From Fidelibacterota bacterium (GTDB taxonomy: Bacteria > Fidelibacterota > UBA2242): 64,000 nt of DNA. Positions 32,219 to 64,000 of the stretch are shown one piece after another; the first letter of the stretch is position 1, and every line of letters begins with the position of its first letter. Made by a program: the position numbers and the translations under genes. The notes beneath the pieces are model-generated. The model worked only from the letters and a program-made list of their open reading frames with translations. It ran no database searches and was not told the origin of the DNA. The stretch is from positions 2,780 to 66,779 of the forward strand of contig JBNGDF010000005.1 of assembly GCA_049975265.1 (NCBI GenBank), read 5' to 3'.

Positions 32219-32584
32219 TTATTCCAGGTTTCGGGAGGCGATCAGGGGAATTCCCGAACCGGCAATGTTTTCCATCAGAATATCTCCCATTTTGACTGGA
32301 GTCGCTACTTCTATCCGGTTGATTTCATTCATACAAGGAAATATCAGATGTTTGGGAATTGCTTCCCGGGTGCGCACCGGTAAACGTTTATAGTGGGAGT
32401 TAATAACCTTTACTGTGGAGGTTAGTATTCGGCGGGGGTCGGTCATTTCAGCGATCGCATAACTGATGCCCCGTTTGCAGGAATTACCCTCTACCCGAAA
32501 TCCGTTTTCCGATTTTTCATCGCGGTAAACCGTCAGCCTGCAACCAATCGGGCAGGCGGTACAGATAAGCTCTTTAGATTGCAT
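32219..32584 (-). CDS. DUF1667 CxxC protein, small partner of the flavoprotein pair
   Basis: CTACPIGC, GNSCKRG, DPRRILTSTV. Confidence 0.88.
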   Translation of the reverse strand: MQSKELICTACPIGCRLTVYRDEKSENGFRVEGNSCKRGISYAIAEMTDPRRILTSTVKVINSHYKRLPVRTREAIPKHLIFPCMNEINRIEVATPVKMGDILMENIAGSGIPLIASRNLE

Positions 32585-33851
32585 ATGATGTTTTTTCTCC
32601 ATCAATGTGCAGGGAAATTGTTTTCGGTTGAATGGTTTTCATGATATTGGAATTAATCCGTACCCGTTCCATTTCACCAGGGGCAAGGTGGAGTCGTTTG
32701 ACCTCTTTGATTATTTTTCCATCGGCTTGAATCCGGATTCTGGCATTGCGATACACCCTGGTGACCCGCAGCATGATGTCCAGAATTCCGTTCAGATTAT
32801 CAAGGCGGATATACTGAGGGATGACGTAGCTGACGCCCTCTTCCGGTACGACAGGGATAGAGGGGATGTTTTCATTGATTTCTTCAAAAATATAATGTGC
32901 GGCGCCGGCACCGGCTTTCCGGGCTTCTTCAGTGACATAATCAGCCAAGTCGTGCACATGGGTGACATTTCCGCAGGCAAAGAATCCTTCGACGCTGGTT
33001 TCCATACTCTCGTTGACCAGCGGACCACCGGTTCTCGGATCAAGTTTGATATTAGCCTGGAGGGATAATTCATTTTCCGGGATCAGTCCCACGGAAAGCA
33101 AAAGAGTATCGCATTGGTACTCTTTTTCGCTGCCCGGGATCGGTTTTAGGTTCTGATCCACCTTGGAAATAGTGACGCCTGTGACACGGTCTTTACCCCT
33201 GATATTGGTGACAGTATGGTTCAGTAGCAAGGGAATGTCGTAATCGTGGAGACACTGAACGATATTGCGGGTCAAGCCGCTGGAATAGGGCATCAGCTCC
33301 GCAACCGCCATAACTTTGGCGCCCTCCAGTGTAAGGCGCCGTGCCATAATTAAACCTATATCACCGGAACCGAGAATCACAATCCGCCGACCCACCATGT
33401 AACCTTCGATATTGATAAATCGTTGAGCAGTACCGGCAGTAAGGACACCCGCCGGTCGGGTTCCGGGAATCCGAATGGCGCCCCGGGTCCGCTCACGGCA
33501 ACCCATGGCTAAAATGATAGCATTGGCAGAGATGTGGATCAAGCCATCCTGTTTATTGATGGCGGTGATGGTTTTGATTTCTGAAATGTCCATTACCATC
33601 GTATCGGTTTTATATTCAATGTCCATTTCGAGAAGTTCATTGATAAACCGCTGGGCATATTCTGGTCCGGTCAGTTCTTCTTTAAAAATATGTAAGCCGA
33701 AGCCGTTATGGATACACTGCTGCAAAATGCCGCCCAGTTCAAGGTCTCTTTCGAGAACTAAAATATTTTGGACACCCTTTTTCCGGGCTTCGATGGCAGC
33801 TGCCAAACCGGCGGGACCGCCTCCGATGACGACCAACTCGTAATTCAGCAT
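32574..33851 (-). CDS. NAD(P)/FAD-dependent oxidoreductase (pyridine nucleotide-disulfide family)
   Basis: GGGPAG, GGIL.QCIH.GFG, GCRER.RG, GSGDIGLIMARR, CGNV.HVHDL. Confidence 0.9.
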   Translation of the reverse strand: MLNYELVVIGGGPAGLAAAIEARKKGVQNILVLERDLELGGILQQCIHNGFGLHIFKEELTGPEYAQRFINELLEMDIEYKTDTMVMDISEIKTITAINKQDGLIHISANAIILAMGCRERTRGAIRIPGTRPAGVLTAGTAQRFINIEGYMVGRRIVILGSGDIGLIMARRLTLEGAKVMAVAELMPYSSGLTRNIVQCLHDYDIPLLLNHTVTNIRGKDRVTGVTISKVDQNLKPIPGSEKEYQCDTLLLSVGLIPENELSLQANIKLDPRTGGPLVNESMETSVEGFFACGNVTHVHDLADYVTEEARKAGAGAAHYIFEEINENIPSIPVVPEEGVSYVIPQYIRLDNLNGILDIMLRVTRVYRNARIRIQADGKIIKEVKRLHLAPGEMERVRINSNIMKTIQPKTISLHIDGEKTSYAI

Positions 33852-35338
33852 TCTACTTCCTTCAATTGTTGGGCAGCGAGAACGGGTTTGGTTTCATTCA
33901 TATCCGCAGATTTGGTTTTACCAGTGAGAATGGGTGAATTCAAATTGTCTTTTAGAATGCTGCCCATCTCCTGATGCAGTTCACGCGCCAGTATCTCAAT
34001 CACACGGGGCATACAGAAACCACCCTGACAGCGTCCTGTGCCGGGTCGGACTCGGCGTTTGACACCGTCAACTGTTGTGGCGCCGGCATTTCGGTGAATG
34101 GCATCTACAATTTCGCCTTCGGTAATATTTTCGCAGCGGCAAATGATTCTGGCAAACCGCGGCTCTCTTTTGATCAAACTGGCTTTTTGATGATCGCTCA
34201 ATTCGGCGAAGTGAATGATTTCGCGACGGGTGTCGCGAAAATCACGCTTTGGTTTCAGCGCCGGCAGTATTGAATCGACAATGCCGACCACCTTTTCAGC
34301 AATTGCCGGCGCTGCCGTAAGTCCCGGTGATTTGATGCCGGCAACATTTATAAAACCCTTAACTGCCGGTGATTCTGCGATGATGAAGTCGCCGGTGTCG
34401 GGTTCGGCACGCAGTCCGGCGAAAATATTGATGGTCTGATGCAGTGGAATATTAATAAAACTTTGCCGAGCGGTCTGTTGGACAAATTCCAGCCCCTGTG
34501 AGGTCGTCTCGACGGCGTCATCGCGGGAAATCCGTTCGGAGTTTGGTCCAATCAGAACGTTGCCATGAACTGTGGGGGTAACCAGAACCCCTTTCCCGAG
34601 ATCACTGGGTGGTTGAAAAACCACATGGCGCACCATTTTGCCGGCGGTTTTGTCCAGTACATAGTATTCCCCACGGCGGGGCATGATTGTAAATTCCGGT
34701 GGCGCGATCAAATTGTTAATTTTATCGGCTTGCACACCGGCACAATTAATGATGACCCTGGAGCGGAATTGAACAGAGCCGGTTGAAATATTGAAAATTC
34801 CATCTGCTTTGGAGATGGAGACAACCGGGCTGTTTAAATAGAGTTCCGCGCCATTATCGATTGCATTTTCTGCCAGAGCAATCGCCAGCTCCCATGGTCC
34901 TACGATTCCGGCGGTTTTGGCATACAGCGCACCGATAGCAGCGGGATTTATTTCCGGTTCGAGATTGCGGAGCTGGTCGCGGTCGATGATTTCCATCTGG
35001 CGGATTTTATTCCGGATGCCCCGTTCATAAAGCTGCTGAAGGGTTTTAAGATCGGTGTCGTTAAACGCCAGCACCAGCGAACCAATTCGTTTGAAGGGTA
35101 CTTGGAGACGTCTGCAAAGGGAATCGAACATGGGATTTCCCTTTGAATTTAGTTCAGCCATCAGGGTACCCGGTTTCGGATCGTAGCCGGCGTGGATAAT
35201 GGCACTGTTGGCTTTTGTGGTGCCGTTTGAGACGTCGTTTTCTTTATCGATCAGAGCGATTTTCAATTGATAGCGGGTTAATTCACGGGCGATAGAGGTA
35301 CCGCAGATTCCGGCTCCGATAATCAGAACGTCATACAT
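33845..35338 (-). CDS. FAD-dependent oxidoreductase with BFD-like [2Fe-2S] domain (GlpA-like glycerol-3-phosphate dehydrogenase/LhgO family)
   Basis: GAGICG, TTKANSAIIHAG, GI.SPGLTAAPA, CRCE, GRCQGGFC. Confidence 0.88.
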   Translation of the reverse strand: MYDVLIIGAGICGTSIARELTRYQLKIALIDKENDVSNGTTKANSAIIHAGYDPKPGTLMAELNSKGNPMFDSLCRRLQVPFKRIGSLVLAFNDTDLKTLQQLYERGIRNKIRQMEIIDRDQLRNLEPEINPAAIGALYAKTAGIVGPWELAIALAENAIDNGAELYLNSPVVSISKADGIFNISTGSVQFRSRVIINCAGVQADKINNLIAPPEFTIMPRRGEYYVLDKTAGKMVRHVVFQPPSDLGKGVLVTPTVHGNVLIGPNSERISRDDAVETTSQGLEFVQQTARQSFINIPLHQTINIFAGLRAEPDTGDFIIAESPAVKGFINVAGIKSPGLTAAPAIAEKVVGIVDSILPALKPKRDFRDTRREIIHFAELSDHQKASLIKREPRFARIICRCENITEGEIVDAIHRNAGATTVDGVKRRVRPGTGRCQGGFCMPRVIEILARELHQEMGSILKDNLNSPILTGKTKSADMNETKPVLAAQQLKEVEC

Positions 35339-35362
35339 GCCGCCGAGTCCTTCATGTTGTTA

Positions 35363-35392
35363 AAGAATAAATATACATTAATATTAATTCAT
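35363..35392. promoter_or_regulatory. Tandem SorC-type operator upstream of the dehydrogenase operon
   Basis: AAGAATAAATATACAT (35363) and ATTAATATTAATTCAT (35377); minus-strand TTGACT at 35425-35420. Confidence 0.6.
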
Positions 35393-35539: not shown

Positions 35540-36490
35540 TTAAGTTAGATGAAGCAGCTCGTCAGCCCCCTGATCATCAATAACCAGAGAGTTGATGATT
35601 CCTGCTCTCGCCGCAGCGGCAACGACTTGAGCCCGATCCCGTCCGCCGGTTACGGCAACCACTTCCGGAATCCTTTTTAACTGTTCCAAGCTGATGCCGA
35701 TAATCCGGTTTGTATAAGTGGTTTCACATTCATTGCCATCTTGGTCCAGAAAATGACCACAGATTTCACCCACCATGCCCCGGGATTTAAGGTTATTTAA
35801 TTTGTGTTTTTCAGAAAATTCATTTGTGTAGAAGACCGAATTTACCGGATTACCAATTCCTACGAAAGCCAGGTTGGCATGATCCATCTGGTTTAGGACA
35901 TATTTAATCTGCTCGTGTTCTACAAAAATTTGGTAGCTGCGGTGGTCGGGAGTGATTGCGGGGGCTTGCAGACGATAATATTGTCCGCCCCAGCGTTTCG
36001 CCAGGCGCCGGGTAAGTTCGATAGCATCATTTTCCTGAATCTGGGTAGAAATATCACCGATGGCTTGAATAAAGATATTGCTGTAAGTCGCTTGGGTCGG
36101 TTTCATCTCCTCCGTCACAGCATTCAGATAACGTCCCGCGGCGACACAGACAACTGAACCGGATTTGATTAGTTTGCTGAGAACAGGAGCCGCAAAATGC
36201 CCCATCGTGTAGCGATACTGTTCGCTGGTCTGACCGGGGATTGTTTTGATGACGACGCAGTGATGAAAATGGAATTCTTCCATCAATTTCTTTTCAAGCA
36301 CCTGATCACGGGGCGAAAAAGGCTTAACCTGGATTTGGACTATTCCCTTTTTACGGGCTTCCTGGAGCAGACGGGACACATTAGCCTGGGATAGTCCGGC
36401 TAGTTTAGCTACTTTAGCCTGCCCCAGACCTTCGATGTAGTAAAGCGAGGCAACAAGCAGTAAAATTTCATCTTTTGCTTTTGGTTTAAT
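35540..36490 (-). CDS. SorC/DeoR-family sugar-phosphate-binding regulator, predicted ATT start
   Basis: In-frame HTH LYYIEGLGQAKVAKLAGLSQANVSRLL.EAR..GIV lies upstream of the tracked GTG; VGIG and GEICGHF sugar-binding domain. Confidence 0.9.
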   Translation of the reverse strand: MKPKAKDEILLLVASLYYIEGLGQAKVAKLAGLSQANVSRLLQEARKKGIVQIQVKPFSPRDQVLEKKLMEEFHFHHCVVIKTIPGQTSEQYRYTMGHFAAPVLSKLIKSGSVVCVAAGRYLNAVTEEMKPTQATYSNIFIQAIGDISTQIQENDAIELTRRLAKRWGGQYYRLQAPAITPDHRSYQIFVEHEQIKYVLNQMDHANLAFVGIGNPVNSVFYTNEFSEKHKLNNLKSRGMVGEICGHFLDQDGNECETTYTNRIIGISLEQLKRIPEVVAVTGGRDRAQVVAAAARAGIINSLVIDDQGADELLHLT

Positions 36491-36726: not shown

Positions 36727-36789
36727 TTGACATTCCCTGAAAAATGCTTAAAATTAACTTGGCATTTTTATTAATGGATATTTATTCAA
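36727..36789 (+). promoter_or_regulatory. Promoter and operator for the TonB receptor operon
   Basis: TTGACA 36727, TAAAAT 36749; palindrome ATGGATATTTATTCAA 36774-36789. Confidence 0.65.
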
Positions 36790-36907: not shown

Positions 36908-39625
36908 ATGAATAAATTTGGTGTGGTTGTAATAGTTGGACTGGTCTTATTGATTTGTATTAGTGCTTTGGCTGCACGACCGGAAAAATCATGGGGAAGA
37001 TTGTTGATAAAAACACCGGTGATCCGATTGTCGGCGCTAATATCTATATTGAAGGTACCAGTATGGGGACGGCATCGGATATCAATGGCGATTACTTTAT
37101 TATCAACATTCCACCCGGAACCTACACACTGATCTGTTCTTATGTTGGATATGAACGCATCTCCGTAGTAAATATTGAGGTCAACGTTGACCGGACTACA
37201 ATTCAAAATTTTTCTATCGCTCCCCAAGCAATTGAGGGTGAGGAAGTAACGGTTATTGGGACCCGCAAGATTATTGAAATGGACCGCACAAATACAGCGG
37301 CTTATGTAACATCAGAAGAAATTCAGACCATGCCGGTGCAGGAGCTGGGCGACCTTATTCAGCTGCAAACGGGTGTGGTGAAGGATGCCGGTGGTACTTT
37401 TCATATTCGTGGTGGTCGCGGTGGTGAAATCGCCTATCTGATTGACGGAGTTCCGGTGACGGATCAATATAACGGCGGAAGTTCCATTGCGATGGAAAAC
37501 AGCTGGGTTCAGGAGCTGCAGGTCATCAGCGGTACGTTTAACGCCGAGTTACGGTCAGGCTCAATCGGGTGTCGTCAATATGATTACCAAGGAGGGTGCG
37601 AAAAAATTTGGCGGAAATGCCTCGCTCTCAATTGGCGATTATCTTTCAAGCCATTCAGATATTTTTATGAATATCGGGGAGATAAATATAAATGAGAAGG
37701 ACCTCAATCTGAACTTCAGAGGACCGATCTCCCTTATTCGGAATTTGTCTTTTTACACATCCCTGCGCTATTATCAGACCGATGGCTGGTTATACGGACA
37801 GCGTCGGGTGCTTATCGATGATACCGTGCCGATCCAGCATTATGTCTATCAGGCTCAACGAAATCCCACTCAGGAGGAGTCACTTTATGGGTATAACATT
37901 CCGGACTCGCTGATGAATGGAGACGGCGCCTATATTCCCATGAATGGCAGAGAAAAAATTTCCGGTTACGGGAAGCTTTCGTACATGCTTACGCCGAAAA
38001 TTAAGATCAACTATTCGCTATTTTACAATAAGACGGAATCCAGGTCCTACAGTGATTCCCGGCGCTACTCTCCTGACGGTGTACGTCCGTCTCATGACCG
38101 CAATTATAATCACATTCTCAGTCTGAATCACATCCTCTCAAATAAGACCTTTTATAATCTCAACCTATCCCATTATGCCAAAAACACCTGGTCTTACCTT
38201 TTTGAAAATCCTCTGGATCCGCGTTACCAAGGCATTGCCTTTAGTGACCAGGGATTCATCTTTGGCGGCACTCAGAACGACCGGTATGATATTTTACGCT
38301 CGGCGACATCAGTTAAATTTGATCTGACCAGTCAGATCAACAAGTTCAATCAGGTTAAAATGGGGCTCGAGTATAAGCAACACAAACTTGATTACAACTC
38401 TTCCAAAACGGTAGCATACGGTGTCAACTACCAGCCGCCCGATTCTCTGGCGGTGCCTGCGAGAAATACGGCAAATAATAATCATTATCTGGTAAAGCCC
38501 TTAGAAGCATCAATATATATTCAGGACAAAATTGAATTCAGAGAGGTGATCATCAATGTCGGTTTACGTTACGATTACTGGGACCCGGTAGCTCAGATCC
38601 CCGTGGATTTACGCGCCAGAACAAATATCTATGATGGTATTCGACTGGATTCGGAACTCAGGAAAGCCAAAAAACAGATGCAACTGAGTCCCCGATTGTG
38701 TTTAGCATATCCTATTTCCGACCGGGGAGTATTTCACGTTTCCTACGGTCACTTTTTCCAGCTGCCGCGTTTCAATGCAATTTACAATAATTACGAATAT
38801 GAGATTGAACTGGGCGGGCTGCGTACAACAATGGGCAACGTGAATTTGAAACCGGAACAGACAGTAGCTTACGAGTTGGGACTTCAACAGCAACTTGCGG
38901 CGGACTACAGTATTGACATTACCGTTTATTATAAGGACATCCGTAATTTACTGAGTCAGGAAATCATCAGTACCTATGATGACAAGGTCTATGCCCGCTA
39001 TATTAATCGTGATTACGGCAATGTAAAGGGTATCATCTTTTCGGTGAACAAAGCCTATTCGAATTATTTTTCCGGTGGGATTGATTACACCTATCAGGTG
39101 GCGATGGGGAATGCGTCTGATCCGAATGCTGTCTTTACAAGATATCAGACCGATCCACCGGCGGAGGACGAAAAGCAGGTGGTCCCTCTGGACTGGGATC
39201 AGCGGCATACCTTGAATGCGTCGGCGATTGTTGGGAATCCGTCCAACTGGACCTTTGCGGTAATCGGGCGGTTTGCCACAGGAATGCCTTACACGCCGAC
39301 CAACCCCGGTAGTCAGTTGACGACCCAGTTTGAAAACAGTGCCCGCAGACCGGCGACGTATAACATTGACCTGAATATCTATAAATCGGTGAAATTGCAG
39401 CGCTATAAGCTGAATCTCTTTTGCAAGATATTCAATTTGACCGACCGTTTAAATGAGATCAGAATCTATTCCAGTACCGGCAATGCCCGTCATCCCTACA
39501 GGACCATTCCCAATATGGAGGTGCTGCAAAACAATCCGAATTTCACGGTGGATGAGGTGGATTTGAATCCTACCTACTATTCCAGTCCCCGACGGGTTTT
39601 ATTCGGTATAAGTGTCGATTTCTAA
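36908..39625 (+). pseudogene. TonB-dependent receptor interrupted by two frameshifts (or sequencing errors)
   Basis: Signal peptide from 36908; 1 nt missing at ~36974 (expected GTTGKI.GK); 1 extra T at ~37549 (expected FNAEYGQAQSG); plug HIRGGR..E..YLIDG; C-terminal PRR...G...F; 905 aa if restored. Confidence 0.85.
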
Positions 39626-39640: not shown

Positions 39641-42600
39641 ATGTGCAAATCAATAATAATACGATGCCTTGTTCCTGTTACCCTTCTGTTTCTGACCAAG
39701 CAGGGGTTGTTCGCCGGAGCTGATGAGCGTACCACCGGGGTTCATGATGGTAACCTTGTAATTACCCGCTATTCGAATTATGGCAACCTGGGGCACCGCG
39801 ATTCCAGTCCGCGGATGGAATGGCCGAAGGGGACCGGTTTTGTCTACGGGTTTGAATTTATTATGATGGCGGGTGCTGAAGTGCTGGACGTTAACGGCGA
39901 TACAGTCCATATCGTATCGGAATCCTATTCACATCCAACCAGCGGGGATATTTCGGCAGACGGAACGCACTGGTACAGCTGGCAACCGTTGCCGGGTTAT
40001 TACAATATGGGACCCGAAAACAAGCTGTTATATCCGGCGATGAGTCATAAACCAGAGACCTGGCCGGCAAGCTGGCCTCACGACTACCCCGGCGAACCCG
40101 GAACCCGTGACGGTTTGTGGAACGGTGAGTTTGGTGCTTATACGCGCGCTGATCAGGAAAGTTACTATGTCATGGACGATCGTGACAATGACGAGTACGA
40201 ATATTATCCCTTTATCGGAAGTTCTGTTGATTCATCGGGCTATCCCTACGGGAGGCGTGGTCTTGGATTTGAGGTGAAAATGCGCGGCTATCAGTGGGCG
40301 GCAGTAGAGGCGGAAGACATTCTGATTGTGTGTTACGATATTGCCAATGTCAGTCATAAAAACCTCGAGACAGTTGTATTCGGTATGTACGTGGATGCCA
40401 TGGTGGGTGGTACCAATGACAATCCCGATCATGCAACATTTGACGATTTGGATGATATTACCTATTGCTGGGATCATGATGGTGTGGACAATCGGGGTCG
40501 CCCGGGGCTCGGTTTTTTCGGATTTGCTTTTTTGGAAAGTCCCGGTGATCCGCTAAATGGAGTAGATGATGATCAGGATGGGTTAATCGATGAACGTCAG
40601 GATAATCCTCGCGGCAACTATATTTTTGGTTCAATCGGCAATTTTGGAGAGCCCTGTTGGCACTGGGAAGGCGATGAAGATGGGGATTGGCGCCCTTATT
40701 TGGATGAGAACGGAAATGGACAGTGGGACCACGGTGAATTCATCGGTGATGATGTCGGTTCGGATGGGATCGGACCATATGACCAGGACTATCCGGGACC
40801 AGATCCTGATGGAACCGAAGCCAACGGAATGCCCGATGACGGCGAACCGAATTATAATAAGACCGACAACGATGAATCGGATCAGATCGGCTTGACCAGT
40901 TCAGTATTGTGTGAAGCCCAGAGTATGGCACCCGACGAGCGCACCTGGAACCATATGAAGCCTGGCCTGTTTGCCTGGGTTCAACCTTCTAATCTCGCGT
41001 TTGTTTACGGCTCGGGCTATTTTAAGGTTATGCAAGCAGAAACCCGCAAATTTGCCATTGCCTGTCTGTTTGGAATTGATGAAGATGATATATACCGTAA
41101 TAAAAGAACTATGCAGCGGATTTACGATGCCGATTATAGCTTTACTAAACCGCCGCTGAAGCCGCGTTTGACGGCTATAGCCGGTGATGGTAAAGTGATT
41201 CTCAGTTGGGATAAACGCGCTGAATTGTCCATTGATCCAATCTATAAAGAGGATTTTGAAGGATACTTAGTCTATCGCTCTACAGATCCCTCATTTAATG
41301 ATATTAAGACGGTCACCGATGCCTACGGTGCGCCGATTTACTGGAAACCGATTGCCCAGTACGATCTGGTTGACGGTCTGAAGGGTCCGCATCCAATCGC
41401 AATTGAAGGGACCGGTGCGCAATTTTACATGGGTAAGGACACCGGTCTGAAATACTACTACGTCGATGAAGATGTCCAAAACGGGCGTACCTACTACTAT
41501 GCAGTCTGTTCGTATGACAAGGGATATGACACGGACTTTTATGAAAAGGGGTTCTCCCGCTATGATCTCCTGGCTCCGGTAGCGCCTTCGGAGTGTTCAA
41601 AAATTATTCAGACCGACCTCGTGGGCAATGTCACCAGTGTTGACCGTAACTGTGCCGTCGTCGTGCCCAATGCCCCCAGCGCCGGGTATGTGCCCGGTCA
41701 GGTGGAGGAAATTGAGCATATCGGCATTGCTACCGGCGAGTATGCCGTCAATGTTATCGTGCCCGATAGCGTTAAAGATGGTCATACTTATGAAATCACT
41801 TTTCTGGATGATTCGACGGACTGGCGCAATACAAAGAGTGTTAAAGTTGAAAATGTAACGGCGGGAAAGATTTTATACCAGAATGATTATAATGAATTCG
41901 AGATCAGTAACGAACTTTTTGAGGGGCTCCAGTTCGAATTTGACAACGATTCAACCTATATCAAAGAGTATGGCTGGCGGGTGGGTAATTGCAATCTGCC
42001 CGTAGAAGTGGACACGGCGTGGGGTGTCAAAATTATCCGGGTTCCGGAAGATCTGGAAATAAGGGTACTTGGTCCCAATGCCGACACCACCTACAATCCC
42101 CTTGCATGGGAGCGGTATCCGGTCAATTTTCAGGTGTGGAGTACGACCCGCAATGAACAGATGGATTTCATGTTCAGTGAACCGATTAATAAAGACAGTA
42201 TGCTGAACGCCGGTGATAAGGTCTATCCGGTGATTAATGCCAAAGGATTTAATTACAACGATATATGGGAAATTTACTTTCGCCACGACACCACCCAAAA
42301 GGATGTGATTTTACCGCAGCCGGGTGACATTTTTGAAATTAAGGTCTATAAACCCTTTAACTCCGATGATACGCTCCGTTTTACAACAGCAGGTTCCTTC
42401 GTCAGCAAAACAGAAGCGAAGAGCAGTCTGGACGATGTATATGTCGTTCCCGATCCCTATGTGGTGACAGCCAGCTGGGAAAAACCACTGTTTTATGCCA
42501 GCGGTCGGGGTGAACGCCGGGTCGATTTTGTCAATCTGCCGCAGAAGTGTACGATTCGGATTTTTACCATGAGTGGAAAGCGGGTGCGGACCCTGCACCA

Positions 42601-47479: not shown

Positions 47480-47498
47480 GAGTGACAGGAGAACAGTC

Positions 47499-49496: not shown

Positions 49497-49514
49497 AAAG
49501 CAGATTACCATCCG

Positions 49515-51479: not shown

Positions 51480-51485
51480 GGTACG

Positions 51486-53286: not shown

Positions 53287-53349
53287 TTGACTCTGATGGA
53301 AATATTTTTTAAGGTATAGTGGAATTTATATTATTGAATAAATATTCAA
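53287..53349 (+). promoter_or_regulatory. Promoter and operator for the lamin-tail gene
   Basis: TTGACT 53287, 17 nt, TAAGGT; palindrome TTGAATAAATATTCAA 53334-53349. Confidence 0.7.
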
Positions 53350-56400: not shown

Positions 56401-56786
56401 CCGTTACCGGCGTCACCGACGTTTCCGGAAATGCCATCGAAGACATGAATACGGCGACCTTTGTCGGTCCGGCGGTGGTTGGAATAAACGGTGAGGATGC
56501 TCTTCCTAAGGTCTTCGCCCTGCATAAGAACTACCCGAACCCATTTAACCCGGTCACGACGATCAATTACGATCTTCCCAAAGATGCCAATGTTCGCATC
56601 GTGATCTATGATGTAATGGGACGGGAGGTTCGCACGCTGGTGAACCGGCATCAGAAAGCGGGCTACAGGACACTGCAGTGGAATGCACTGGATAACCGCG
56701 GACTTCCGGTCAGTTCAGGCTTCTATTTCTATGTGATGGATGCCGGCAACTTCCATAAGACCGAGAAGATGCTGTTGCTGAAGTAG
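53484..56786 (+). pseudogene. Secreted multi-lamin-tail/Ig-like protein with C-terminal sorting domain; in-frame TGA at 53763-53765
   Basis: ORFs 53484-53765 and 53817-56786 share a frame; duplicated INEFTYNSEYYDNE.IELYN units; NYPNPFNPVT CTD; 1100 aa if restored. Confidence 0.82.
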
Positions 56787-56840: not shown

Positions 56841-57014
56841 CTCATAATGAAAGCGGCTGTTGGAAATAATATTGGTGAATATTTTCATTGACTTTTAGCC
56901 AGATTTTCCGCAAACTTTATTGGAATTATTATTTGTGTATATTTATTCTAAGTTTGAATTTGCCTGAATGCTCCAATTTTTTAAAATTTCAAATGTCAAT
57001 CAAAGGATGCCCTG

Positions 57015-57899
57015 ATGAAGAAACTGTTTACAGGAGGTCTGATTGCTTTAATGACCATGGGATGTTCTCAGAGCGATCGTAAACCGATTGATTTTTATGA
57101 TCGTCTGAATATCCTGCCCATCCAGGCACACCGCGGCGGTGGTCTGGCATTGCCCGAAAATACGCTGGAGACCTTTGAATTTACCTGGGCAAATCAGATG
57201 ATTCCCGAAGCCGATATCCGGACAACCAGTGACGATGTCATTGTCTGTATACATGATGATACCGTTGGACGGGTGGCTCCGGATGCTTCCGCCAATTTAA
57301 AAAAGAAAAAATTCGAAGAGCTTGATTTACAAACGATCAGGTCACTAGATGTGGGTCGCTATCGGGGCAAACCCGGTCAGCGGATTCCCACCTTGGAAGA
57401 AGTATTCGCCGTGATGCAGGGACATCCTGAAAAATTGCTCTACCTGGATTATAAACAGATCGATCTGGACCGACTGGCGACGCTGGTGAAAAAGTATAAT
57501 TTGGAAAAACAGATTATTTTTACGACGAAGCACTATGACCTGATTCTGGAGTGGAAAAAGCGGATTCCGGAATCACCGACCATGATCTGGATAGGGGGTT
57601 CACTGGCGCATAAAAAGGAGACTTATGCCAGCCTGAAGGAGGCTGATTTTGAAGGTTTAACAACACTCCAGATCCATGTCAAACTGCAGGATAACGGGCA
57701 ATTTACCCCCGATGCGGATTATCTCGGTGCCTGCTTGAAAGAGTTGACGAAACATGGTGTCTTGTTTCAGGTACTGCCCTGGCGAATTAACGATCCGGAA
57801 GTCTTTAGAAAACTGATGGATATCGGTATCCGTTCCTTTGCCACCGATTTTCCTGATTTAACGCTTGCAGTATATACCGACTATTTAAAAAGTCCGTGA
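57015..57899 (+). CDS. Second GDPD-family phosphodiesterase, lipoprotein
   Basis: Lipobox TMGC, QAHRGGG...PENT, EADIRTT.D...VCIHD, IPTLEEV, FATDFP. Confidence 0.88.
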   Translation: MKKLFTGGLIALMTMGCSQSDRKPIDFYDRLNILPIQAHRGGGLALPENTLETFEFTWANQMIPEADIRTTSDDVIVCIHDDTVGRVAPDASANLKKKKFEELDLQTIRSLDVGRYRGKPGQRIPTLEEVFAVMQGHPEKLLYLDYKQIDLDRLATLVKKYNLEKQIIFTTKHYDLILEWKKRIPESPTMIWIGGSLAHKKETYASLKEADFEGLTTLQIHVKLQDNGQFTPDADYLGACLKELTKHGVLFQVLPWRINDPEVFRKLMDIGIRSFATDFPDLTLAVYTDYLKSP

Positions 57900-57915: not shown

Positions 57916-59289
57916 ATGAAATCCTACGAAATTGAGACTTCGCAGCGGATAAAGGATGCGCTGCAAATCCTTGACGCGAGTAAAATTGTCGAAATCGGTA
58001 GCGGCATTTTAGACAGGATAGCGGAAATCTTTCGGCGCTGTTTTGATGATCGACCAGCGATCATTATTGCGGATATGAATACCTATCCGGCTGCCGGACG
58101 GCAGGTTGAAACACTGCTAAAAAATTCGGGTATATCGCTGCTGGAAACGTTTATTTTCAGGGAAGCTGATTTGTATGCAGAGATGCAGCATGTTGACCAT
58201 TTGGTGGAGCTGCTCTCGAAAGTAGATGCCATTGCCATTGCGGTGGGGTCCGGTACCATCAACGATCTGGTCAAGTTAAGTTCCTATCGTTGTGGTCGTC
58301 AGTATCTGGTGGTGGTGACTGCCGGATCGGTGGATGGGTACAGCGCTTATGGAGCATCAATCTCAGAAAATGGTTTAAAACAGACCTTTTTTTGTCCGGC
58401 ACCTCAGGCGGTGATTGTGGATTTGGATGTTATAGCCGCCGCCCCACGGATAATGAATGCCTGGGGATATGCCGATTTGGCAGCAAAAATCCCGGCGGGC
58501 GCCGATTGGATTATCGCGGATGCACTGGGGATTGAACCGATTGACAGAATTGCCTGGAATTTCGTGCAACGACCGCTACGGAAATTAATCACCGATCCTG
58601 CCGGTGTCAGAAATGGCGATCAGCGGGCACTCTGTTTCCTGATCGAGGGATTAATCATGAGTGGTCTGGCGATGCAACAGGCGAAATCCTCGCGACCGGC
58701 TTCGGGTGCCGAGCATCAGTTCAGTCACCTTTGGGACAACCAGCATCATATTCACCATGGCAAGGCGCCTTCCCACGGTTTCAAGGTAGCGGTGGGGTCT
58801 ATGGCATCCATTGCGCTCTATGAGGCAATGTTTGCAATTCTGGGTGATGCTCCATCAGCGAAACTACGGGATGTCACCGGCTACTGGTTGGATTTTGCTG
58901 ATATTGAGAGAGAAATAAAACGGGAATTTCCCAGTCCGCAGGAGTCGGTTCAGATCATTGAGCAGAGCCGTGAAAAGTATGTCGATCACAGAGAGTTAGC
59001 CAAACGGGTTGCTCAGGCAGTCTCCATCTGGCCGGATTTGAAGAAGAAATTGCTGAAACAACTGCTCGATTTTAAAGAATTTCAAGCCCTGCTCAGAAGG
59101 GTGGGGGCACCCCTCTCACCTCTTGACATCGGTATTGAGCCGGATCGGCTGAGGGCTAGTTATCGAACCGCCTGGCTGATACGGCAGCGGTATACGATAT
59201 TGGACTTTACTTACCAGTTGGGTATATTCGAGCAGTGCATCGGGTATATTTTCGATTCCGAACGGTATTGGAAATCCTCGTCTGAATAA
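57916..59289 (+). CDS. egsA: sn-glycerol-1-phosphate dehydrogenase (AraM/EgsA family)
   Basis: GSGTINDLVK, TAGSVDGY, AWGYADL.AK, RPASGAEHQFSHLWD, HG.KV, RYTILD. Confidence 0.88.
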   Translation: MKSYEIETSQRIKDALQILDASKIVEIGSGILDRIAEIFRRCFDDRPAIIIADMNTYPAAGRQVETLLKNSGISLLETFIFREADLYAEMQHVDHLVELLSKVDAIAIAVGSGTINDLVKLSSYRCGRQYLVVVTAGSVDGYSAYGASISENGLKQTFFCPAPQAVIVDLDVIAAAPRIMNAWGYADLAAKIPAGADWIIADALGIEPIDRIAWNFVQRPLRKLITDPAGVRNGDQRALCFLIEGLIMSGLAMQQAKSSRPASGAEHQFSHLWDNQHHIHHGKAPSHGFKVAVGSMASIALYEAMFAILGDAPSAKLRDVTGYWLDFADIEREIKREFPSPQESVQIIEQSREKYVDHRELAKRVAQAVSIWPDLKKKLLKQLLDFKEFQALLRRVGAPLSPLDIGIEPDRLRASYRTAWLIRQRYTILDFTYQLGIFEQCIGYIFDSERYWKSSSE

Positions 59290-59309: not shown

Positions 59310-60161
59310 ATGGATAACAAGACAACACATTTAAAGCGGCTCGTGAATATTCGCCACCTGGTACTGGATATGGACGGAACCATTTACAACGGCAGACGGC
59401 TGTTTAATTTTACCACTGATTTTTTTAAAAAGCTGGACAACCTGGGAATTCGGTACACCTATCTGACGAACAATTCATCGAGAAATGTGTCGCAGTATCT
59501 GGAAAAAATCCGCAGCATGAACCTGAAAGGAACCAAAGAGAATATCTACACATCTTCGCTGGCGACGATTGATTATCTTCAATCCAGGCGACCGGAGCTG
59601 CAGAAATTGTATATTCTGGGAACGGAGGGATTGAAAAGGGAATTTCGGGAATATGGATTTACGGTCGTGGAGACAGACGGCGCTATGGAACCGGACGGCG
59701 TAGTGGTCGGTTTTGATACCTCTCTTGATTTTAAGCGCTTATGTAAAGCCGGATACTGGATCAAAAGCGGAAAGCCTTTTATAGCGACGCATCCTGATCG
59801 CATCTGCCCTACGGATCAACCGACGCTGCTGATTGACTGCGGGGCTATCTGTGCCGCTCTGAGTTCGGCGACCAGCAGGGCGCCGGATGTGGTGCCGGGT
59901 AAGCCCGACCCAGGTATGATTTGGGGAATCATGGAGCGCAATAAATTACACAAGGAAGAGGTAGCCATGGTGGGCGATCGCCTCTATACGGATATTGAGA
60001 TGGCACGCCGAGCCGGGGTGATGGGGATTTTGGTATTGTCCGGTGAAGCAACGGCGGAGGATGTAAATAACGCCGTCCATCAACCGGACCTGATTGTGGA
60101 AAATATCCGGGAACTTGGGGAACTACTGGAACAGAGTCATCAGGTGAACAACCGAGAGTGA
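59310..60161 (+). CDS. HAD-IIA phosphatase (NagD/AraL family)
   Basis: LDMDGT, LTNNS, ATHPD, GKP, VGDRLYTDI, VLSG. Confidence 0.92.
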   Translation: MDNKTTHLKRLVNIRHLVLDMDGTIYNGRRLFNFTTDFFKKLDNLGIRYTYLTNNSSRNVSQYLEKIRSMNLKGTKENIYTSSLATIDYLQSRRPELQKLYILGTEGLKREFREYGFTVVETDGAMEPDGVVVGFDTSLDFKRLCKAGYWIKSGKPFIATHPDRICPTDQPTLLIDCGAICAALSSATSRAPDVVPGKPDPGMIWGIMERNKLHKEEVAMVGDRLYTDIEMARRAGVMGILVLSGEATAEDVNNAVHQPDLIVENIRELGELLEQSHQVNNRE

Positions 60162-60194
60162 TACTGTAGTGATTTAGATTACAGGAGACATCAG

Positions 60195-61583
60195 ATGATC
60201 TTTAGCAGGCTGTTCAATTTTTTAAAGGTGGCACCGGATGTACCGCCGATTACCGATGAGCACGTGATGCGGAAACAGTACAAATACTGGCGTTTCCGGG
60301 TCATGTATGTCATGATGTTCGGCTATATGGGCTACTACTTTGTGCGTAAGAGTCTGGCGGTGGCGATGCCGGTTATCGAGCAGGAGTTTAATATTCCCAA
60401 GGCACAGCTGGGTCTGATTCTGACGGCGTTTGGGATTACCTATGGGGTCTCAAAATTTATCAACGGTTTTGCGGGTGACCGCACGAATCCGCGCTACTTC
60501 ATGGCGTTGGGCTTGATCTGTTCGGCGCTGATCAATGTGTTTTTCGGACTGAGCAGCGGTATTATTACATTCGGTGTGTTCTGGATTTTAAACGGCTGGT
60601 TTCAGGGAATGGGCTGGGCACCCTGCAGCAAAACGCTGGTCAATTGGTATGCCGCCCTGGAGCGCGGCGTCCGGTTTTCCATCACCAACACCGCCTGTTC
60701 CATCGGAGCTTCGGGAGTCGTCTTTTTAAACGGTTTTCTGATTGTCCGCTACGGCTGGCGCTCCTGCTTTTTTGTGCCGGCGGGGATTGCCTTGCTGGCG
60801 GCGCTTTTTATTTTGAATCGTCTGCGCGACCGTCCGCAATCGCTGGGTCTGCCGCCGGTGGAGGAATATGTAGGCGAGGAAGCCGATATCAGCGATTCAA
60901 AAGATGGGCAAAACGTCTCATATAAAAAGGTTGTGGTTCAGTACATTTTCAAAAATCCGGGAATGTGGATCGTCAGTATTGCCAACTTTTTTGTCTATGT
61001 GATCCGCTATGCGATTCTGGATTGGGGTACCACCTTTCTGACGGAGTCAAAGGGCGTGGATATTACCCAGGCGGCGGGGATTGTCGGTGGCTATGAACTG
61101 GCGGGATTAGCCGGTATGCTGGTCGGCGGCTGGGCTATGGACAAGCTGTTTAGAGGCTACGGCGGACGGACCTGTGGAATTTATATGGCGTTATGTACCC
61201 TTTTTATTTATCTGTTCTGGAAATTGCCGGTACAATCGGTGATTCTCAATGGAGCACTTATCTGGGGTACAGGATTTATGATTTATGGTCCGCAGTGTCT
61301 GGTAGCGGTTATCGCTGTCAACATGGTGCCGAAAAGCGCCGGTGCGGCAGCGGTGGGACTGACCGGTCTGTTTGGCTATTTAAGTACGATTCTTTCCGGT
61401 TGGGGGCTTGGTTTGGTAGTTGACAATTTCGGATGGGATACCGGCTTTATGGTATTGGTCCTGTCATCTCTGGCGGCGATGTTCTGTTTTATTTTGTTGT
61501 GGAACCGGAATCCACATCTGCCGGGTTCCAAAGCGCATACAGAGCATGAAAATAATAAATTGAGAAACCGGAGTGCCAGATAG
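60195..61583 (+). CDS. glpT: MFS organophosphate:Pi antiporter (GlpT/UhpC family)
   Basis: GY..YYFVRK, YGVSKF, NGWFQGMGW.PC, LRDRPQSLGLPP.EEY, N.FVY.IRY...DW, IYGPQ. Confidence 0.85.
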   Translation: MIFSRLFNFLKVAPDVPPITDEHVMRKQYKYWRFRVMYVMMFGYMGYYFVRKSLAVAMPVIEQEFNIPKAQLGLILTAFGITYGVSKFINGFAGDRTNPRYFMALGLICSALINVFFGLSSGIITFGVFWILNGWFQGMGWAPCSKTLVNWYAALERGVRFSITNTACSIGASGVVFLNGFLIVRYGWRSCFFVPAGIALLAALFILNRLRDRPQSLGLPPVEEYVGEEADISDSKDGQNVSYKKVVVQYIFKNPGMWIVSIANFFVYVIRYAILDWGTTFLTESKGVDITQAAGIVGGYELAGLAGMLVGGWAMDKLFRGYGGRTCGIYMALCTLFIYLFWKLPVQSVILNGALIWGTGFMIYGPQCLVAVIAVNMVPKSAGAAAVGLTGLFGYLSTILSGWGLGLVVDNFGWDTGFMVLVLSSLAAMFCFILLWNRNPHLPGSKAHTEHENNKLRNRSAR

Positions 61584-62056
61584 TGGGAAAGCGGTTAAAA
61601 ATTGCGATTGACTGTGACGATGCGGCAACGGACCTGAAAAAAGTTATTTATGAGCATTTGAAGACATCTGGTGTTGATATTACCGATTTGAATTATGGAG
61701 CGGGGCGTGACGCCATGTATCCGGAGATCGGCTATCATCTGGCTCTGAAAATCCAGACCGGCGAATATGATCGGGGAATTTTAATTTGTGGTACCGGTTT
61801 GGGAATGGCGATTATCGCCAATAAGGTCGAAGGTGTGTATGCCGGTGTTTGTCACGATGTTTATTCGGCTGAACGTCTGAGAAAGAGCAACAAGGCCCAA
61901 ATATTGACCATGGGAGCGCGGGTCATCGGCAGCGAGTTGGCAAAAATGATTGTGGATGCATGGTTGCACTCCGAATTTAGCGGCGGTCACTCACAACCCA
62001 AAGTAGACCAGATCAAAGCTCTGGAAAGACGCTCTTTTCTTTCGAAAGCGTTATAA
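61583..62056 (+). CDS. rpiB: RpiB/LacAB family sugar-phosphate isomerase (DerI-like)
   Basis: RGILICGTGLGM.I.ANKV.G, HD.YSAER.RKSN.AQ..TMGARVIG, S.PKV. Confidence 0.88.
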   Translation: MGKRLKIAIDCDDAATDLKKVIYEHLKTSGVDITDLNYGAGRDAMYPEIGYHLALKIQTGEYDRGILICGTGLGMAIIANKVEGVYAGVCHDVYSAERLRKSNKAQILTMGARVIGSELAKMIVDAWLHSEFSGGHSQPKVDQIKALERRSFLSKAL

Positions 62057-62138: not shown

Positions 62139-63086
62139 TCAAGATATCTTTAATAATTCTCTTGCACCGATATCATCGATGACTAAAGAGTTGATCAGAT
62201 TACCGTGAATGGCGGCGGCAAGAGCCTCCGCCCGATTTGCGCCGCTGGTAACGGCGATGACCTGAGGGATCCTTTTTAACTGTTCCATGCTGATTCCGAT
62301 GACCCGATTGCGATATTCGGTATCACACTCTTCGCCATCCCGGTTAAAAAAGTGACCACAGATTTCGCCCACAACCCCCTTATTGATCAGGTAGTTTATA
62401 TCGTTGGTTTTCAGAAAGTCGCGGTCGTAAAACACCGAATTGCCGTGAACGCCAATACCGACAAAGGCAAGATCGGCGCTGTCCATACGGGATAATACGA
62501 ATTTGATCTGATCGTGTGAGACAAAGGCTTCGTAGGTCTGACTATTGGTGGTGATGGCCGGGGCTTGCAGGCGTAGAAATTGCCCGCTCCAGCGCTTGGC
62601 GAGTTTCCGAGTGATTTCAATGGCATCGTCTTCTTTGATATGGGTGCTGATATCGCCCATCGCTTGAATGAAAGTTACGCCGGAACTGTTGGCCGGGTGC
62701 ATGTTTTCGCTTAGGCTGTAAATATGACGTCCGGCAGCGACACAGACAATGTTATTCGGTTTAATCAGTTTGGATATAAGCGGTCCGGCGAAATGCCCCA
62801 ACGCATGCCGGCGGTTTTCCTCGCTGGTGCTGGCAGCGCTTTTGATGACAATTGCGAAATCCAGGTGATATTTGATTTTGAGATTTTGTTCGAGTTCTTT
62901 ATCCTGAGCGGAAAAGGGTTTTACGGTGATCTGAACGATCCCACGCCGGCGCGCTTCCTCCAGGAGTCGGGAAACGGTGGCTTGGGACACCCCGGCTAGT
63001 TCCGAAACCTTTGCCTGCCCCAATTTCTCTACATAGTAGAGAGTCGAAACTAAGAGTAAAAGGTCATCTGAGACATTAATTTTAAT
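62139..63086 (-). CDS. Second SorC/DeoR-family regulator, predicted ATT start
   Basis: LYYVEKLGQAKVSELAGVSQATVSRLLEEARRRGIV HTH; collinear with the 35540-36490 paralogue. Confidence 0.9.
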   Translation of the reverse strand: MKINVSDDLLLLVSTLYYVEKLGQAKVSELAGVSQATVSRLLEEARRRGIVQITVKPFSAQDKELEQNLKIKYHLDFAIVIKSAASTSEENRRHALGHFAGPLISKLIKPNNIVCVAAGRHIYSLSENMHPANSSGVTFIQAMGDISTHIKEDDAIEITRKLAKRWSGQFLRLQAPAITTNSQTYEAFVSHDQIKFVLSRMDSADLAFVGIGVHGNSVFYDRDFLKTNDINYLINKGVVGEICGHFFNRDGEECDTEYRNRVIGISMEQLKRIPQVIAVTSGANRAEALAAAIHGNLINSLVIDDIGARELLKIS

Positions 63087-63266
63087 AGTGCACCCGATTT
63101 CAAATTGATTATAACACCAATAATCAGTTATTACTGCCTTTAAAATAATATAGTTGGAATATTTATACAAATAAAAAGAGGAAATTAGCAAAAGTGAAAA
63201 ATCAGGCAGATTTTTCAATCAAGGGTAGAATAATAGGTAGCTTTCAATGAATTGGTAAAAAAACTG

Positions 63267-63330
63267 TTGACTTTTAGGATAAAAGATTGCATACTACACA
63301 TAGAATTAATATTTATGAATAATTATTCTT
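63267..63330 (+). promoter_or_regulatory. Promoter and tandem operator for the second TonB receptor
   Basis: TTGACT 63267, 17 nt, CATACT; TAGAATTAATATTTAT (63301) and ATGAATAATTATTCTT (63315). Confidence 0.65.
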
Positions 63331-63463
63331 ATGGTATTAATAATTCCCCGCAAACTCGAGATAAGTAAAAATTCTTTTATTGTGTTCGCAAAGGTGACTT
63401 CCTGAAACCTACCCAGATATCTTGACATGAATAAAAAATATTTTCAATCAGTTGGAGTGGTGA

Positions 63464-64000
63464 ATGAGTAAAAATATCGGATACGCTGCTTTGGTTTTCA
63501 TTGCCCTGTTCCAGTTTGGCTTTTCCGGGACTACCGGGAAAATCAGCGGAAAAATCGTGGACGGTACGACGGGCGATCCGATTATTGGAGCCAATATCTA
63601 TCTTCAAAACACAGACTACGGCGCCGTTTCCGACGCTGAAGGTAGCTACTTCATCATCAATATCCCACCGGGTACGTACGATATTGTCTGCTCCTTTATC
63701 GGTTATGAGAAAACGATCTATACCGGTGTGGTGGTTAACCTGGACCGGACGACCACAGTCAATTTTACTATCAAGCCGCAAACCATACAGGGCAAAGAGG
63801 TGGTGGTGGTTGGTCAACGTACCCTGGTCGAAATGGACCGGACCAACTCAGCGGCGTATGTTTCTTCCGAGAACATCGAGACGATGCCGGTCCAGGAAGT
63901 CGATGATCTCATTCAGCTGCAGACCGGTGTTGTCAGGGATGCCTCCGGTGCATTTCATATTCGGGGCGGGCGTGCCGGTGAAATTGCCTATCTGATTGAC
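63464..64000 (+). CDS. TonB-dependent receptor, 3' partial (absent from the ORF track)
   Basis: Manual translation from ATG 63464 (GGAGTGG SD): MSKNIGYAALVFIALFQFGFSGTTGKISGKIVD...HIRGGRAGEIAYLID, open to the window end. Confidence 0.92.
   Translation, partial: MSKNIGYAALVFIALFQFGFSGTTGKISGKIVDGTTGDPIIGANIYLQNTDYGAVSDAEGSYFIINIPPGTYDIVCSFIGYEKTIYTGVVVNLDRTTTVNFTIKPQTIQGKEVVVVGQRTLVEMDRTNSAAYVSSENIETMPVQEVDDLIQLQTGVVRDASGAFHIRGGRAGEIAYLID

Follow-up and report, generated by a model that had tools for sequence, protein, structure and literature searches.

An operator-linked locus of a Fidelibacterota bacterium with a probable role in glycerophosphodiester scavenging and a candidate sn-glycerol-1-phosphate branch

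What is the role of a contiguous block of receptor, phosphodiesterase, carrier, and dehydrogenase genes in a Fidelibacterota bacterium? We examined this block in a stretch of 64,000 nucleotides of assembly GCA_049975265.1 (contig JBNGDF010000005.1, positions 2,780 to 66,779), hereafter the window, which is C5:2780-66779 of a 2.86-Mb, 95% complete genome (G000). The genes very probably form a SorC-type, operator-linked block for the scavenging of glycerophosphodiesters. This function is well supported because the glycerol-3-phosphate (G3P) dehydrogenase (G3PDH) is swapped between unrelated types under one operator, and we regard this non-orthologous swap as the strongest evidence for a glycerol phosphate substrate. 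With less assurance, and with the balance tipping only slightly in its favor, we propose that both glycerol-phosphate enantiomers—G3P and sn-glycerol-1-phosphate (G1P)—are catabolized, from phospholipid head groups and teichoic-acid-type polymers. Gene content, the operator, conservation, and residue patterns were observed, whereas we infer all enzyme activities and the direction of the AraM reaction.

An original prediction had described a contiguous locus of ~32 kb: a co-regulated, co-conserved system for phosphodiesters, resembling a polysaccharide utilization locus (PUL) and equipped for both enantiomers. The locus is indeed contiguous, but it spans ~49 kb, with its right end near C5:83,870, ~17 kb outside the window. 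Pfam and NCBIfam profile scans recovered every gene named in that prediction in its place: a flavoprotein trio, two SorC regulators, two TonB-dependent receptors (TBDRs), a PorV barrel, proteins with the C-terminal domain (CTD) of the T9SS (type IX secretion system), two glycerophosphodiester phosphodiesterases (GDPDs), a SASA esterase, a purple-acid-phosphatase-type metallophosphoesterase, an Fe-ADH_2/AraM protein, an HAD-IIA phosphatase, an OPA-family carrier of the major facilitator superfamily (MFS), and RpiB (Table 1). Operator conservation, the G3PDH swap, and phosphodiester-fed gene neighborhoods support the proposed co-regulation and co-conservation and the import of polyol that is already phosphorylated, and the presence of two classes each of GDPD and dehydrogenase is what one would expect for both enantiomers. 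The nearest named relatives of the AraM protein belong to Candidatus Neomarinimicrobiota (62-88% identity), which places the host.

The shared operator and the G3P dehydrogenases

How tightly are these genes tied together? A 26-nt operator occurs in five copies, all within this locus and each 35-36 nt after a TTGAC element. The five promoters precede the trio (minus strand), the TBDR1-CTD partner-PorV-LamG-LTD operon, a large lamin-tail domain (LTD) protein, the GDPD2-araM-HAD-carrier-rpiB operon, and TBDR2. The copies score 30.6-34.7 bits and the next-best genome match 19.1 bits; that match, at C6:33376, lies inside an open reading frame (ORF) and was rejected as a sixth operator. When each site was left out in turn, 3-5 of 5,723,944 genome positions scored at least as high as the omitted one, training sites included. 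The operator recurs at equal spacing in relatives from two families (f1 and f7). Its promoter–operator pattern was found in 8 of 251 genomes of the phylum, 7 of which are among the 10 that carry AraM; the reversed pattern, used as a control, had no match in the same 251 genomes, and seven distant flavoprotein paralog loci had no operator site above 10.4 bits. A perfect promoter–operator match also lies near a contig end in a genome with no AraM match (G080:C85:863-924). A generic scan for sigma-70 promoters and terminators gave a signal at or near shuffle level.

The idea that a shared operator ties the whole locus together therefore stood for the five promoters but not for the block at 46712-53203 (GDPD1, esterase, propeller protein, phosphoesterase), which has no operator of its own and is preceded by a hairpin. 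In two relatives (G052 and G096), equivalents of this block, minus the esterase, lie directly 3′ of the TBDR cassette; from this gene order and possible read-through, we infer its co-regulation. The operator is likely bound by the two SorC-family proteins, judging by adjacency and co-occurrence: their genes, 57% identical, diverge from the two TBDR operons. Both seem to start at ATT (window 36488-36490 and 63084-63086, minus strand). Aligned starts are ATT, ATC, or ATA in f1 relatives, several with an in-frame stop just 5′, and ATG or GTG in f7 relatives. The ATT starts may reflect a conserved weakness of initiation by which repressor levels stay low.

Which enzyme would oxidize G3P under this operator depends on the family. 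The trio had been called GlpA-like; the trio is present, but its flavoprotein is nearer to type II glycerol-3-phosphate oxidase, scoring 346.4 bits against NF033460 (type II GlpO; below the cut-off of 460) and 116.7 bits against TIGR03377 (GlpA; below the cut-off of 552.8). Its best solved relative is L-alpha-glycerophosphate oxidase 4x9m (E 5e-53). In four relatives, orthologs (80-91% identical) of the pyridine-nucleotide oxidoreductase subunit lie next to the flavoprotein. In family f1, the type II GlpO-like trio has the operator even when it is on another contig. Family f7 has GlpD behind the same operator (two were scanned, both over the NF008899 cut-off), and no ortholog of the trio flavoprotein was found in the three f7 genomes. 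GlpD-type genes occur in 8 of 34 AraM loci overall, including verrucomicrobial loci, where initial “GlpO-like” labels were rejected as the proteins proved to be GlpD/type I.

The candidate G1P branch and its alternatives

The two GDPDs, both with lipobox-like signals, differ in the pocket that recognizes the substrate. In B. subtilis GlpQ, Glu152, Gln188, and Phe190 are tied to sn-G3P specificity, in a pocket that excludes sn-G1P (PMC7086022). GDPD1, which aligns with GlpQ (5t91, E 2e-31), keeps His-Arg, Glu-x-Asp, His, the third calcium ligand Glu152, and Phe190, with Thr for Gln188; its type has the Glu and the xSF motif in 3/3 alignment rows, and GDPD1 is predicted to release sn-G3P. GDPD2 retains the catalytic His, Arg, Glu, Asp, and His but has Asp in place of Glu152 and lacks the Gln188-x-Phe190 pocket; LxLDxK without xSF is found in 15/15 rows of its type, from two phyla and more. 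The GDPD2 class occurs in 7 of 251 phylum genomes, directly before araM in 6 of the 7 (the other, G016, has no AraM match). The altered pocket indicates a different substrate but not its identity, and GDPD2 is a candidate sn-G1P-releasing enzyme.

The gene next to GDPD2 encodes a 457-aa AraM homolog with an insertion, whose best solved relative is B. subtilis AraM (9h4x). Aligned to 9h4x and 4rgq, it keeps GxGTxxD, TAxSxDG, the metal Asp, SRPASGxEH, HGxKV, and a C-terminal RxR, and NCBI names its 43-46% identical Rubrobacter homologs sn-G1P dehydrogenase (G1PDH). That AraM oxidizes G1P is our preferred reading, held by a narrow preference over all others together. The adjacent HAD-IIA protein has glycerol 3-phosphate phosphatase 4i9f among its solved relatives (E 2.6e-25), a step that has been described (PMC12722247). 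The carrier, with full-length similarity to GlpT 1pw4 and two Arg-bearing motifs, belongs to the OPA (GlpT/UhpT) family of the MFS, and AraM-linked carriers form one 43-row branch in a quick tree (SH-aLRT 100). Several relatives have two OPA carriers.

Is AraM fed by phosphodiesters or by a kinase? We compared 34 GTDB loci and the best 80 metagenome loci; the sets overlap, their members are related, and many contigs are short, so that the counts describe a pattern and not a statistic. An OPA carrier or a GDPD was near AraM homologs in 24/34 and 52/80 loci, respectively, a sugar kinase (four FGGY queries, which detect GlpK) in 1/34 and 2/80, and a triosephosphate isomerase (TIM) in 0/34 and 0/80. 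Because the loci are phosphodiester-linked and not kinase-linked, and because the carriers form one branch, the module would thus import a compound that is already phosphorylated.

Kinase-linked homologs do exist elsewhere. On Rubrobacter plasmids, AraM (43-46% identical) occurs with HAD-IIA, the same RpiB type, GlpD, FGGY kinases, and DhaK; two such clusters from cultured organisms (L080:757-17865 and L081:1-18682) have one or two AraM genes, three FGGY kinases, and a DhaK-family kinase. Rhizobial and Acidiphilium homologs (~30% identical) sit with SorC, HAD, and a kinase. In a FastTree phylogeny of the loci collected here, rooted at the midpoint, kinase-linked AraMs branch apart from most phosphodiester-linked ones (67/74 labeled rows; 35 unlabeled). 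Loci L008 and L021, whose records are titled Lentisphaeria and Enterobacteriaceae but which fall within the Neomarinimicrobiota and Verrucomicrobiota branches, respectively, were not counted as further phyla. The kinase-linked homologs demonstrate that proteins of the AraM family can take part in a wider polyol catabolism. G105 has a second AraM paralog, 57% identical and seemingly split, in the region L052:60-16817 (contig C36). Its neighbors are alpha-galactosidases, an aldolase, an aldehyde ferredoxin oxidoreductase, an SSF symporter, and GalT, which suggest use of galactosyl-glycerol.

Several observations weigh against G1P oxidation and the scavenging function built around it. The oxidation of glycerol phosphate with NAD is unfavorable by about 25 kJ/mol. 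Characterized G1PDHs, AraM included, are described as biosynthetic in the literature consulted. AraM scores 171.5 bits with NF002022, below the cut-off of 413, and the carrier 357.7 bits with TIGR00712, below the cut-off of 632.55 (its score with the UhpC model, 393 bits, is likewise below cut-off). The carrier has Cys where GlpT 1pw4 and 38/43 clade members have His; across the host genus, Cys or Val stands at this His of the WNxxH motif. The co-occurrence of araM with its partners is seen in the counts above, but 7/34 AraM loci have no partner gene in the DNA covered. The prediction had also stressed that no glpK was recognized: this is true of the locus, but the genome has glpK at C3:37,613, without the operator, and all 10 AraM carriers have GlpK, so that absence of glpK failed as a proof of direct G1P oxidation. 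RpiB would have no role in a pure three-carbon pathway, yet it is near AraM in 7/34 GTDB and 14/80 metagenome loci. Finally, the propeller protein also resembles GH43/GH32 folds, so that a glycosidase is compatible with its fold, and the G000 assembly has breaks in three to four uptake genes.

The RpiB gene leads to the best of three unlikely alternatives: that AraM, GDPD2, and RpiB handle a four-carbon (or five-carbon) polyol phosphate, for instance that of erythritol or threitol, drawn from unusual teichoic acids or lipids and passed by way of erythrose-4-phosphate to the pentose-phosphate pathway, with only the flavoprotein acting on G3P. In the RpiB of the locus, Asp13, Arg98, Ser102, Ser137, and Lys140 replace the His/Arg phosphate ligands—instead of the canonical His/His/His/Arg phosphate and ring-opening residues it has Asp, Ser, Ser, and Lys—a signature that 5ifz and the Coccidioides enzyme also have. 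With positions counted from the catalytic Cys, these residues match a substitution pattern linked to shorter substrates (PMC3212906). It scores higher with the model NF051858 (DerI, D-erythrulose-4-phosphate isomerase; 160.8 bits, below the cut-off of 240) than with rpiB (131.2), the reverse of the canonical housekeeping copy on contig C6 (76 vs. 167). A transketolase at the end of the G096 locus and the Rubrobacter plasmids, with their combination of AraM, HAD-IIA, RpiB, GlpD, FGGY kinases, and DhaK, also fit a tetritol branch. However, a kinase, an epimerase, and a second TIM are absent from the locus (the genome has one TIM), RpiB is a minority partner of AraM, AraM keeps its G1PDH motifs, and the kinase-linked Rubrobacter AraMs form a branch of their own.

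Barely less probable is a route in which HAD dephosphorylates G1P and the unlinked GlpK takes over, while AraM works reductively, either feeding ether lipids through GGGPS and DGGGPS or, together with HAD, dumping electrons as glycerol. Thermodynamics favor reduction. The genome encodes an unlinked GGGPS (C11:60509-61270) and a DGGGPS-like UbiA on contig C31 (L065:1411-2250; NF009521, 198 bits), and the universal presence of GlpK among AraM carriers agrees with this route. With AraM, these two genes give G000 a candidate for each of the three steps toward archaeal-type ether lipids. In B. subtilis, AraM has been described as a supplier of ether-lipid synthesis (PMC13400652, PMC8262930), and the same species is proposed to route G1P derived from lipoteichoic acid (LTA) via a phosphatase and GlpK (PMC13440414). 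Against this, GGGPS occurs in 184/251 phylum genomes and AraM in 10/251, so that most GGGPS carriers lack AraM, which lowered our estimate of a dedicated ether-lipid role across the phylum; GGGPS/DGGGPS are described as general in bacteria of the Fibrobacteres–Chlorobi–Bacteroidetes (FCB) group (PMC7852524, PMC6431249). Moreover, glpK has no operator and is common in both families anyway (21/29 genomes in f1, 25/26 in f7), and in Verrucomicrobiota AraM directly adjoins the importer.

The surface apparatus and sources of G1P

The uptake machinery centers on two TBDRs that are 62-71% identical. The secreted partner of TBDR1 (1034 aa) had no Pfam family at E≤0.001, and its atlas matches were hypothetical proteins only; it has about 10 paralogs in the genome, adjoining TBDR and PorV paralogs. 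Thus, ~10 cassettes of TBDR, large CTD partner, and PorV are found in G000 (contigs C3, C5, C8, C15, C18, C23, C25, and C47). No SusD was recognized in the locus with Pfam/NCBIfam. The O-acetylesterase named in the original prediction is present in the window, but it was not found in the fully covered f7 and G105 loci. As in the original prediction, no glycoside hydrolase family was recognized with Pfam among the 23 window ORFs, except for a GH2_N-like jelly-roll stretch within this esterase. For the propeller protein, VIA-align gave Z scores of 19.2 (glutaminyl cyclase), 17.4 (YjiK), 17.0 (GH32), and 15.4 (receptor-binding protein of phage phi11); a Foldseek search with the whole chain returned mostly LamG domains and generic propellers, and the best atlas match, at 0.76, is a lead only.

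Outside the window, the TBDR2 operon runs on (C5:66243-83870) with a CTD partner, PorV, a LamG-LTD-CTD protein, a second propeller protein, a PpiC-like protein, a 264-aa protein with a zinc-phospholipase C (PLC) fold and two calcineurin-like phosphoesterases. A PDB sequence search with the 264-aa protein gave no match and its Pfam matches are below cut-off; the fold search did find a Zn-PLC/S1-P1 nuclease fold (Z 15.9, root-mean-square deviation 3.7, 203 aligned residues), and only 6 of 48,161 chains reached Z 5. PLCs (Z 15.9/14.1/13.8) lead nucleases (12.0/11.7/11.2) by 2-4 Z units only. Its invariant residues—W25, H30, D65, H140, D144, H150, and H173—comprise an N-terminal Trp and His/Asp zinc ligands. 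The G052 locus has an extra GDSL acylhydrolase with LTD and CTD.

Could this apparatus target extracellular nucleic acid or an ordinary polysaccharide, with the glycerol-phosphate genes as passengers? This is improbable: LTD domains have a predicted affinity for extracellular DNA or similar polymers (PMC11488536), the PLC fold is common to S1/P1 nucleases, both SorCs match Bacillus DeoR best in NCBIfam, and the propeller resembles GH43/GH32 (Z 15-17), but neither genes for nucleoside or sugar catabolism nor glycoside hydrolase families were recognized in the locus, and one operator precedes the G3PDH, AraM, and TBDR operons alike.

How would the block work as a scavenging system for glycerophosphodiesters? 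CTD-tagged LTD, LamG, and propeller proteins would bind a polymer or membrane at the cell surface, where the PLC-fold enzyme and calcineurin-like phosphoesterases would cut it; the TBDR, its CTD partner, and the PorV barrel would import the fragments. Lipoprotein GDPD1 would then release sn-G3P and GDPD2 sn-G1P. Glycerol phosphate would enter the cytoplasm through the OPA carrier already phosphorylated, and therefore no kinase would be needed. The flavoprotein trio would oxidize G3P and the AraM homolog G1P, both to dihydroxyacetone phosphate, with HAD removing excess or non-oxidizable polyol phosphate; a phosphorylated intermediate likely relieves SorC repression. A complete dedicated sn-G1P route—a mirror-image-GlpQ GDPD, an MFS G1P carrier, and a catabolic G1PDH, under joint regulation with the G3P equivalents and an uptake system that lacks SusD—is a tentative proposal to which we give somewhat less than even weight.

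Where would the G1P come from? Archaeal lipids contain G1P, and sn-G1P would be a direct product of phospholipase C action on phosphatidylglycerol. Phosphatidylglycerol and LTA carry G1P, and GlpQ can neither cleave intact LTA nor free G1P from it (PMC7086022). The surface proteins of the regulon use the domain types—LTD, Ig, LamG, Pur_ac_phosph_N, and calcineurin—of the ShfP radiation (PMC11488536); a conversion of LTA to G1P by ShfP has been proposed (PMC13440414). ShfP itself was not among the 120 matches listed for the calcineurin domain, which included homologs fused to SLH, LamG, and cadherin. Teichoic acids and archaeal lipids had both been predicted as sources. The PLC fold and ShfP-like domains favor phosphatidylglycerol and LTA, and because no ether-cleaving enzyme was recognized in the locus, phosphatidylglycerol and LTA are the likeliest sources, ahead of archaeal lipid, the weakest; the latter could possibly be used only after ether cleavage by others, or via two uncharacterized secreted families.

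The assembly is broken in TBDR1, the metallophosphoesterase, and the large LTD protein (Table 1), while the cytoplasmic core genes are unbroken. At 37549 and 52519, related strains are in frame in both of two metagenome runs (one sediment and one marine sediment, from two studies, one possibly the source sample); these breaks are therefore assembly errors or recent decay. The metallophosphoesterase has an intact 569-aa ortholog in locus L004, and the large LTD protein is 70% identical to a single 1112-aa ORF of the same locus. To the left, minus-strand genes at window 28042-31992 have no operator and were treated as outside the regulon; we take them, from their translations, to be a TetR regulator, a glycogen synthase, and a GH57-type branching enzyme. 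Directly past the locus, after the last phosphoesterase, an exported 517-aa ORF (C5:83955-85508) has what we take to be a glutamate-racemase-like motif; it was not seen there in G105, whose copy of the locus (L051:2996-10250) has an inserted ABC sugar transporter and ribulokinase-family gene.

Table 1. Features of the locus within the window
Feature	Position	Strand	Basis and remarks
DUF1667 small Cys-rich trio subunit	32219..32605	-	PF07892 E 3.6e-31; single copy in genome
Pyridine-nucleotide oxidoreductase trio subunit	32574..33851	-	PF07992 E 3e-34
FAD G3P dehydrogenase/oxidase-like subunit, type II GlpO-like with BFD 2Fe-2S tail	33845..35338	-	DAO + Fer2_BFD
Operator 1 (trio promoter)	35365..35390	-	35 nt after TTGAC; also 5′ of trio orthologs in G105, G125, G153
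SorC-family repressor 1	35540..36490	-	PF04198; probable ATT start at 36490, from aligned relatives
Operator 2 (TBDR1 promoter)	36762..36787	+	Operator scan
TBDR1	36908..39625	+	CarboxypepD_reg, Plug, TonB barrel; frameshift near 37549, probably also near 36970
CTD-tailed secreted TBDR partner, 1034 aa, family unnamed	39641..42745	+	CTD-like tail
PorV/PorQ-family barrel	42774..43841	+	NF033709 209.7 bits, cut-off 90
LamG + 2 LTD + T9SS CTD surface protein	43901..46498	+	Pfam; no catalytic domain recognized
GDPD1 lipoprotein	46712..47479	+	PF03009; LNIELK + TSF, GlpQ-like pocket
SASA-family O-acetylesterase, accessory	47499..49496	+	PF03629
LamG + five-bladed beta-propeller + CTD protein, activity unassigned	49515..51479	+	AlphaFold pLDDT 86.7
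Purple-acid-phosphatase-type metallophosphoesterase	51486..53203	+	PF16656 + PF00149; frameshift near 52519
Operator 3 (large LTD protein)	53322..53347	+	Operator scan
Multi-LTD + Ig (Big_5) + CTD surface protein	53484..56786	+	In-frame TGA at 53763-53765
Operator 4 (GDPD2-araM-HAD-glpT-rpiB promoter)	56923..56948	+	Kept in L004-L007, L059
GDPD2 lipoprotein	57015..57899	+	Altered pocket LYLDYK, FTT
AraM/EgsA-family G1PDH homolog	57916..59289	+	9h4x G1PDH E 1.5e-35
HAD-IIA (NagD/AraL-type) phosphatase	59310..60161	+	TIGR01460 over cut-off
GlpT/UhpC (OPA)-family carrier, AraM-linked clade	60195..61583	+	1pw4 E 1.5e-91
RpiB-family isomerase, short-chain (Coccidioides/DerI-like) type	61583..62056	+	Residue signature + profile scores
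SorC-family repressor 2	62139..63086	-	PF04198; probable ATT start at 63086, from aligned relatives
Operator 5 (TBDR2 promoter, divergent from SorC2)	63303..63328	+	Operator scan
TBDR2 start	63464..64000	+	Operon runs on outside window

Significance and relation to known systems

New here are an operator shared across the regulon, the swap of G3PDH types, two classes of GDPD, and a gene for a protein with the PLC fold. In a search of mostly non-subscription literature, we came across no AraM-GDPD-GlpT locus, no dehydrogenase of G1P catabolism, and no account of the TBDR-CTD-PorV cassette. For the missing G1P steps, the locus offers three candidates that can be cloned—GDPD2, the AraM-linked carrier, and the AraM clade—each with an adjacent G3P-type counterpart as a control. 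A G1P-specific GDPD, if confirmed, would be a useful reagent for the stereochemistry of teichoic acids and lipids. If our reading is right, bacterial G1PDH genes, which are often taken to indicate archaeal-type lipid synthesis, would also have a catabolic reason, and one of the unstudied cassettes would gain a substrate class. A dedicated G1P route, if true, would let bacteria in sediments reuse components of necromass: phosphatidylglycerol, LTA, and possibly the backbones of archaeal lipids.

A parallel for the bacterial utilization of G1P and G3P as sources of carbon is G1P uptake by the GpxB/UgpB proteins of Phaeobacter, which are ABC binding proteins, in contrast to the MFS carrier here (PMC12718374). 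Marine bacteria grow on G1P in that study, one legend of which describes the G1P as racemic; in the parts consulted, it states that no G1P transporters other than two ABC proteins are known, and it names no G1P-catabolic enzyme (PMC12718374). The LTD, Ig, LamG, FN3-like, and calcineurin domains that B. subtilis uses on teichoic acids, in ShfP (YvnB) with PhoA and in the teichoicases PhoD and GlpQ, are found here on separate T9SS-tagged proteins of a Gram-negative scavenger, a likeness of domain types. With the AraM-AraL pair of the B. subtilis ara operon, the locus shares G1PDH motifs and an adjacent HAD-IIA phosphatase; unlike that operon, it lacks arabinose genes and ties AraM to a GDPD and an importer. 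The Brucella ery and mycobacterial tetritol pathways likewise have a SorC-type regulator, a GlpD-family dehydrogenase, and a short-chain RpiB (with the 5ifz signature); the polyol kinase, epimerase, and dedicated TIM of erythritol/threitol loci are absent here, and phosphodiesterases and a phosphate-ester carrier supply the pathway instead.

The two closest comparisons are with PULs and glp systems. As in the SusC/SusD PULs of Bacteroidota, a regulator, TBDR, surface binders, hydrolases, an inner-membrane carrier, and catabolic enzymes are clustered, but a CTD partner and PorV barrel take the place of SusD and phosphoesterases that of glycosidases. The E. coli and B. subtilis glp systems (GlpQ, GlpT, GlpD/GlpABC), regulated by GlpR/GlpP, share with this locus the combination of GDPD, OPA carrier, and flavin-dependent G3PDH. 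Unlike them, the regulon has no glpK or glpF (glpK is unlinked and without the operator), carries SorC regulators and a 26-nt operator, and adds an altered second GDPD, a G1PDH homolog, and a TBDR/T9SS surface apparatus. Because it has neither glpK/GlpR nor SusD and glycoside hydrolase families, the locus is a member of neither class; in its working it resembles a glp system joined to PUL-like machinery for uptake.

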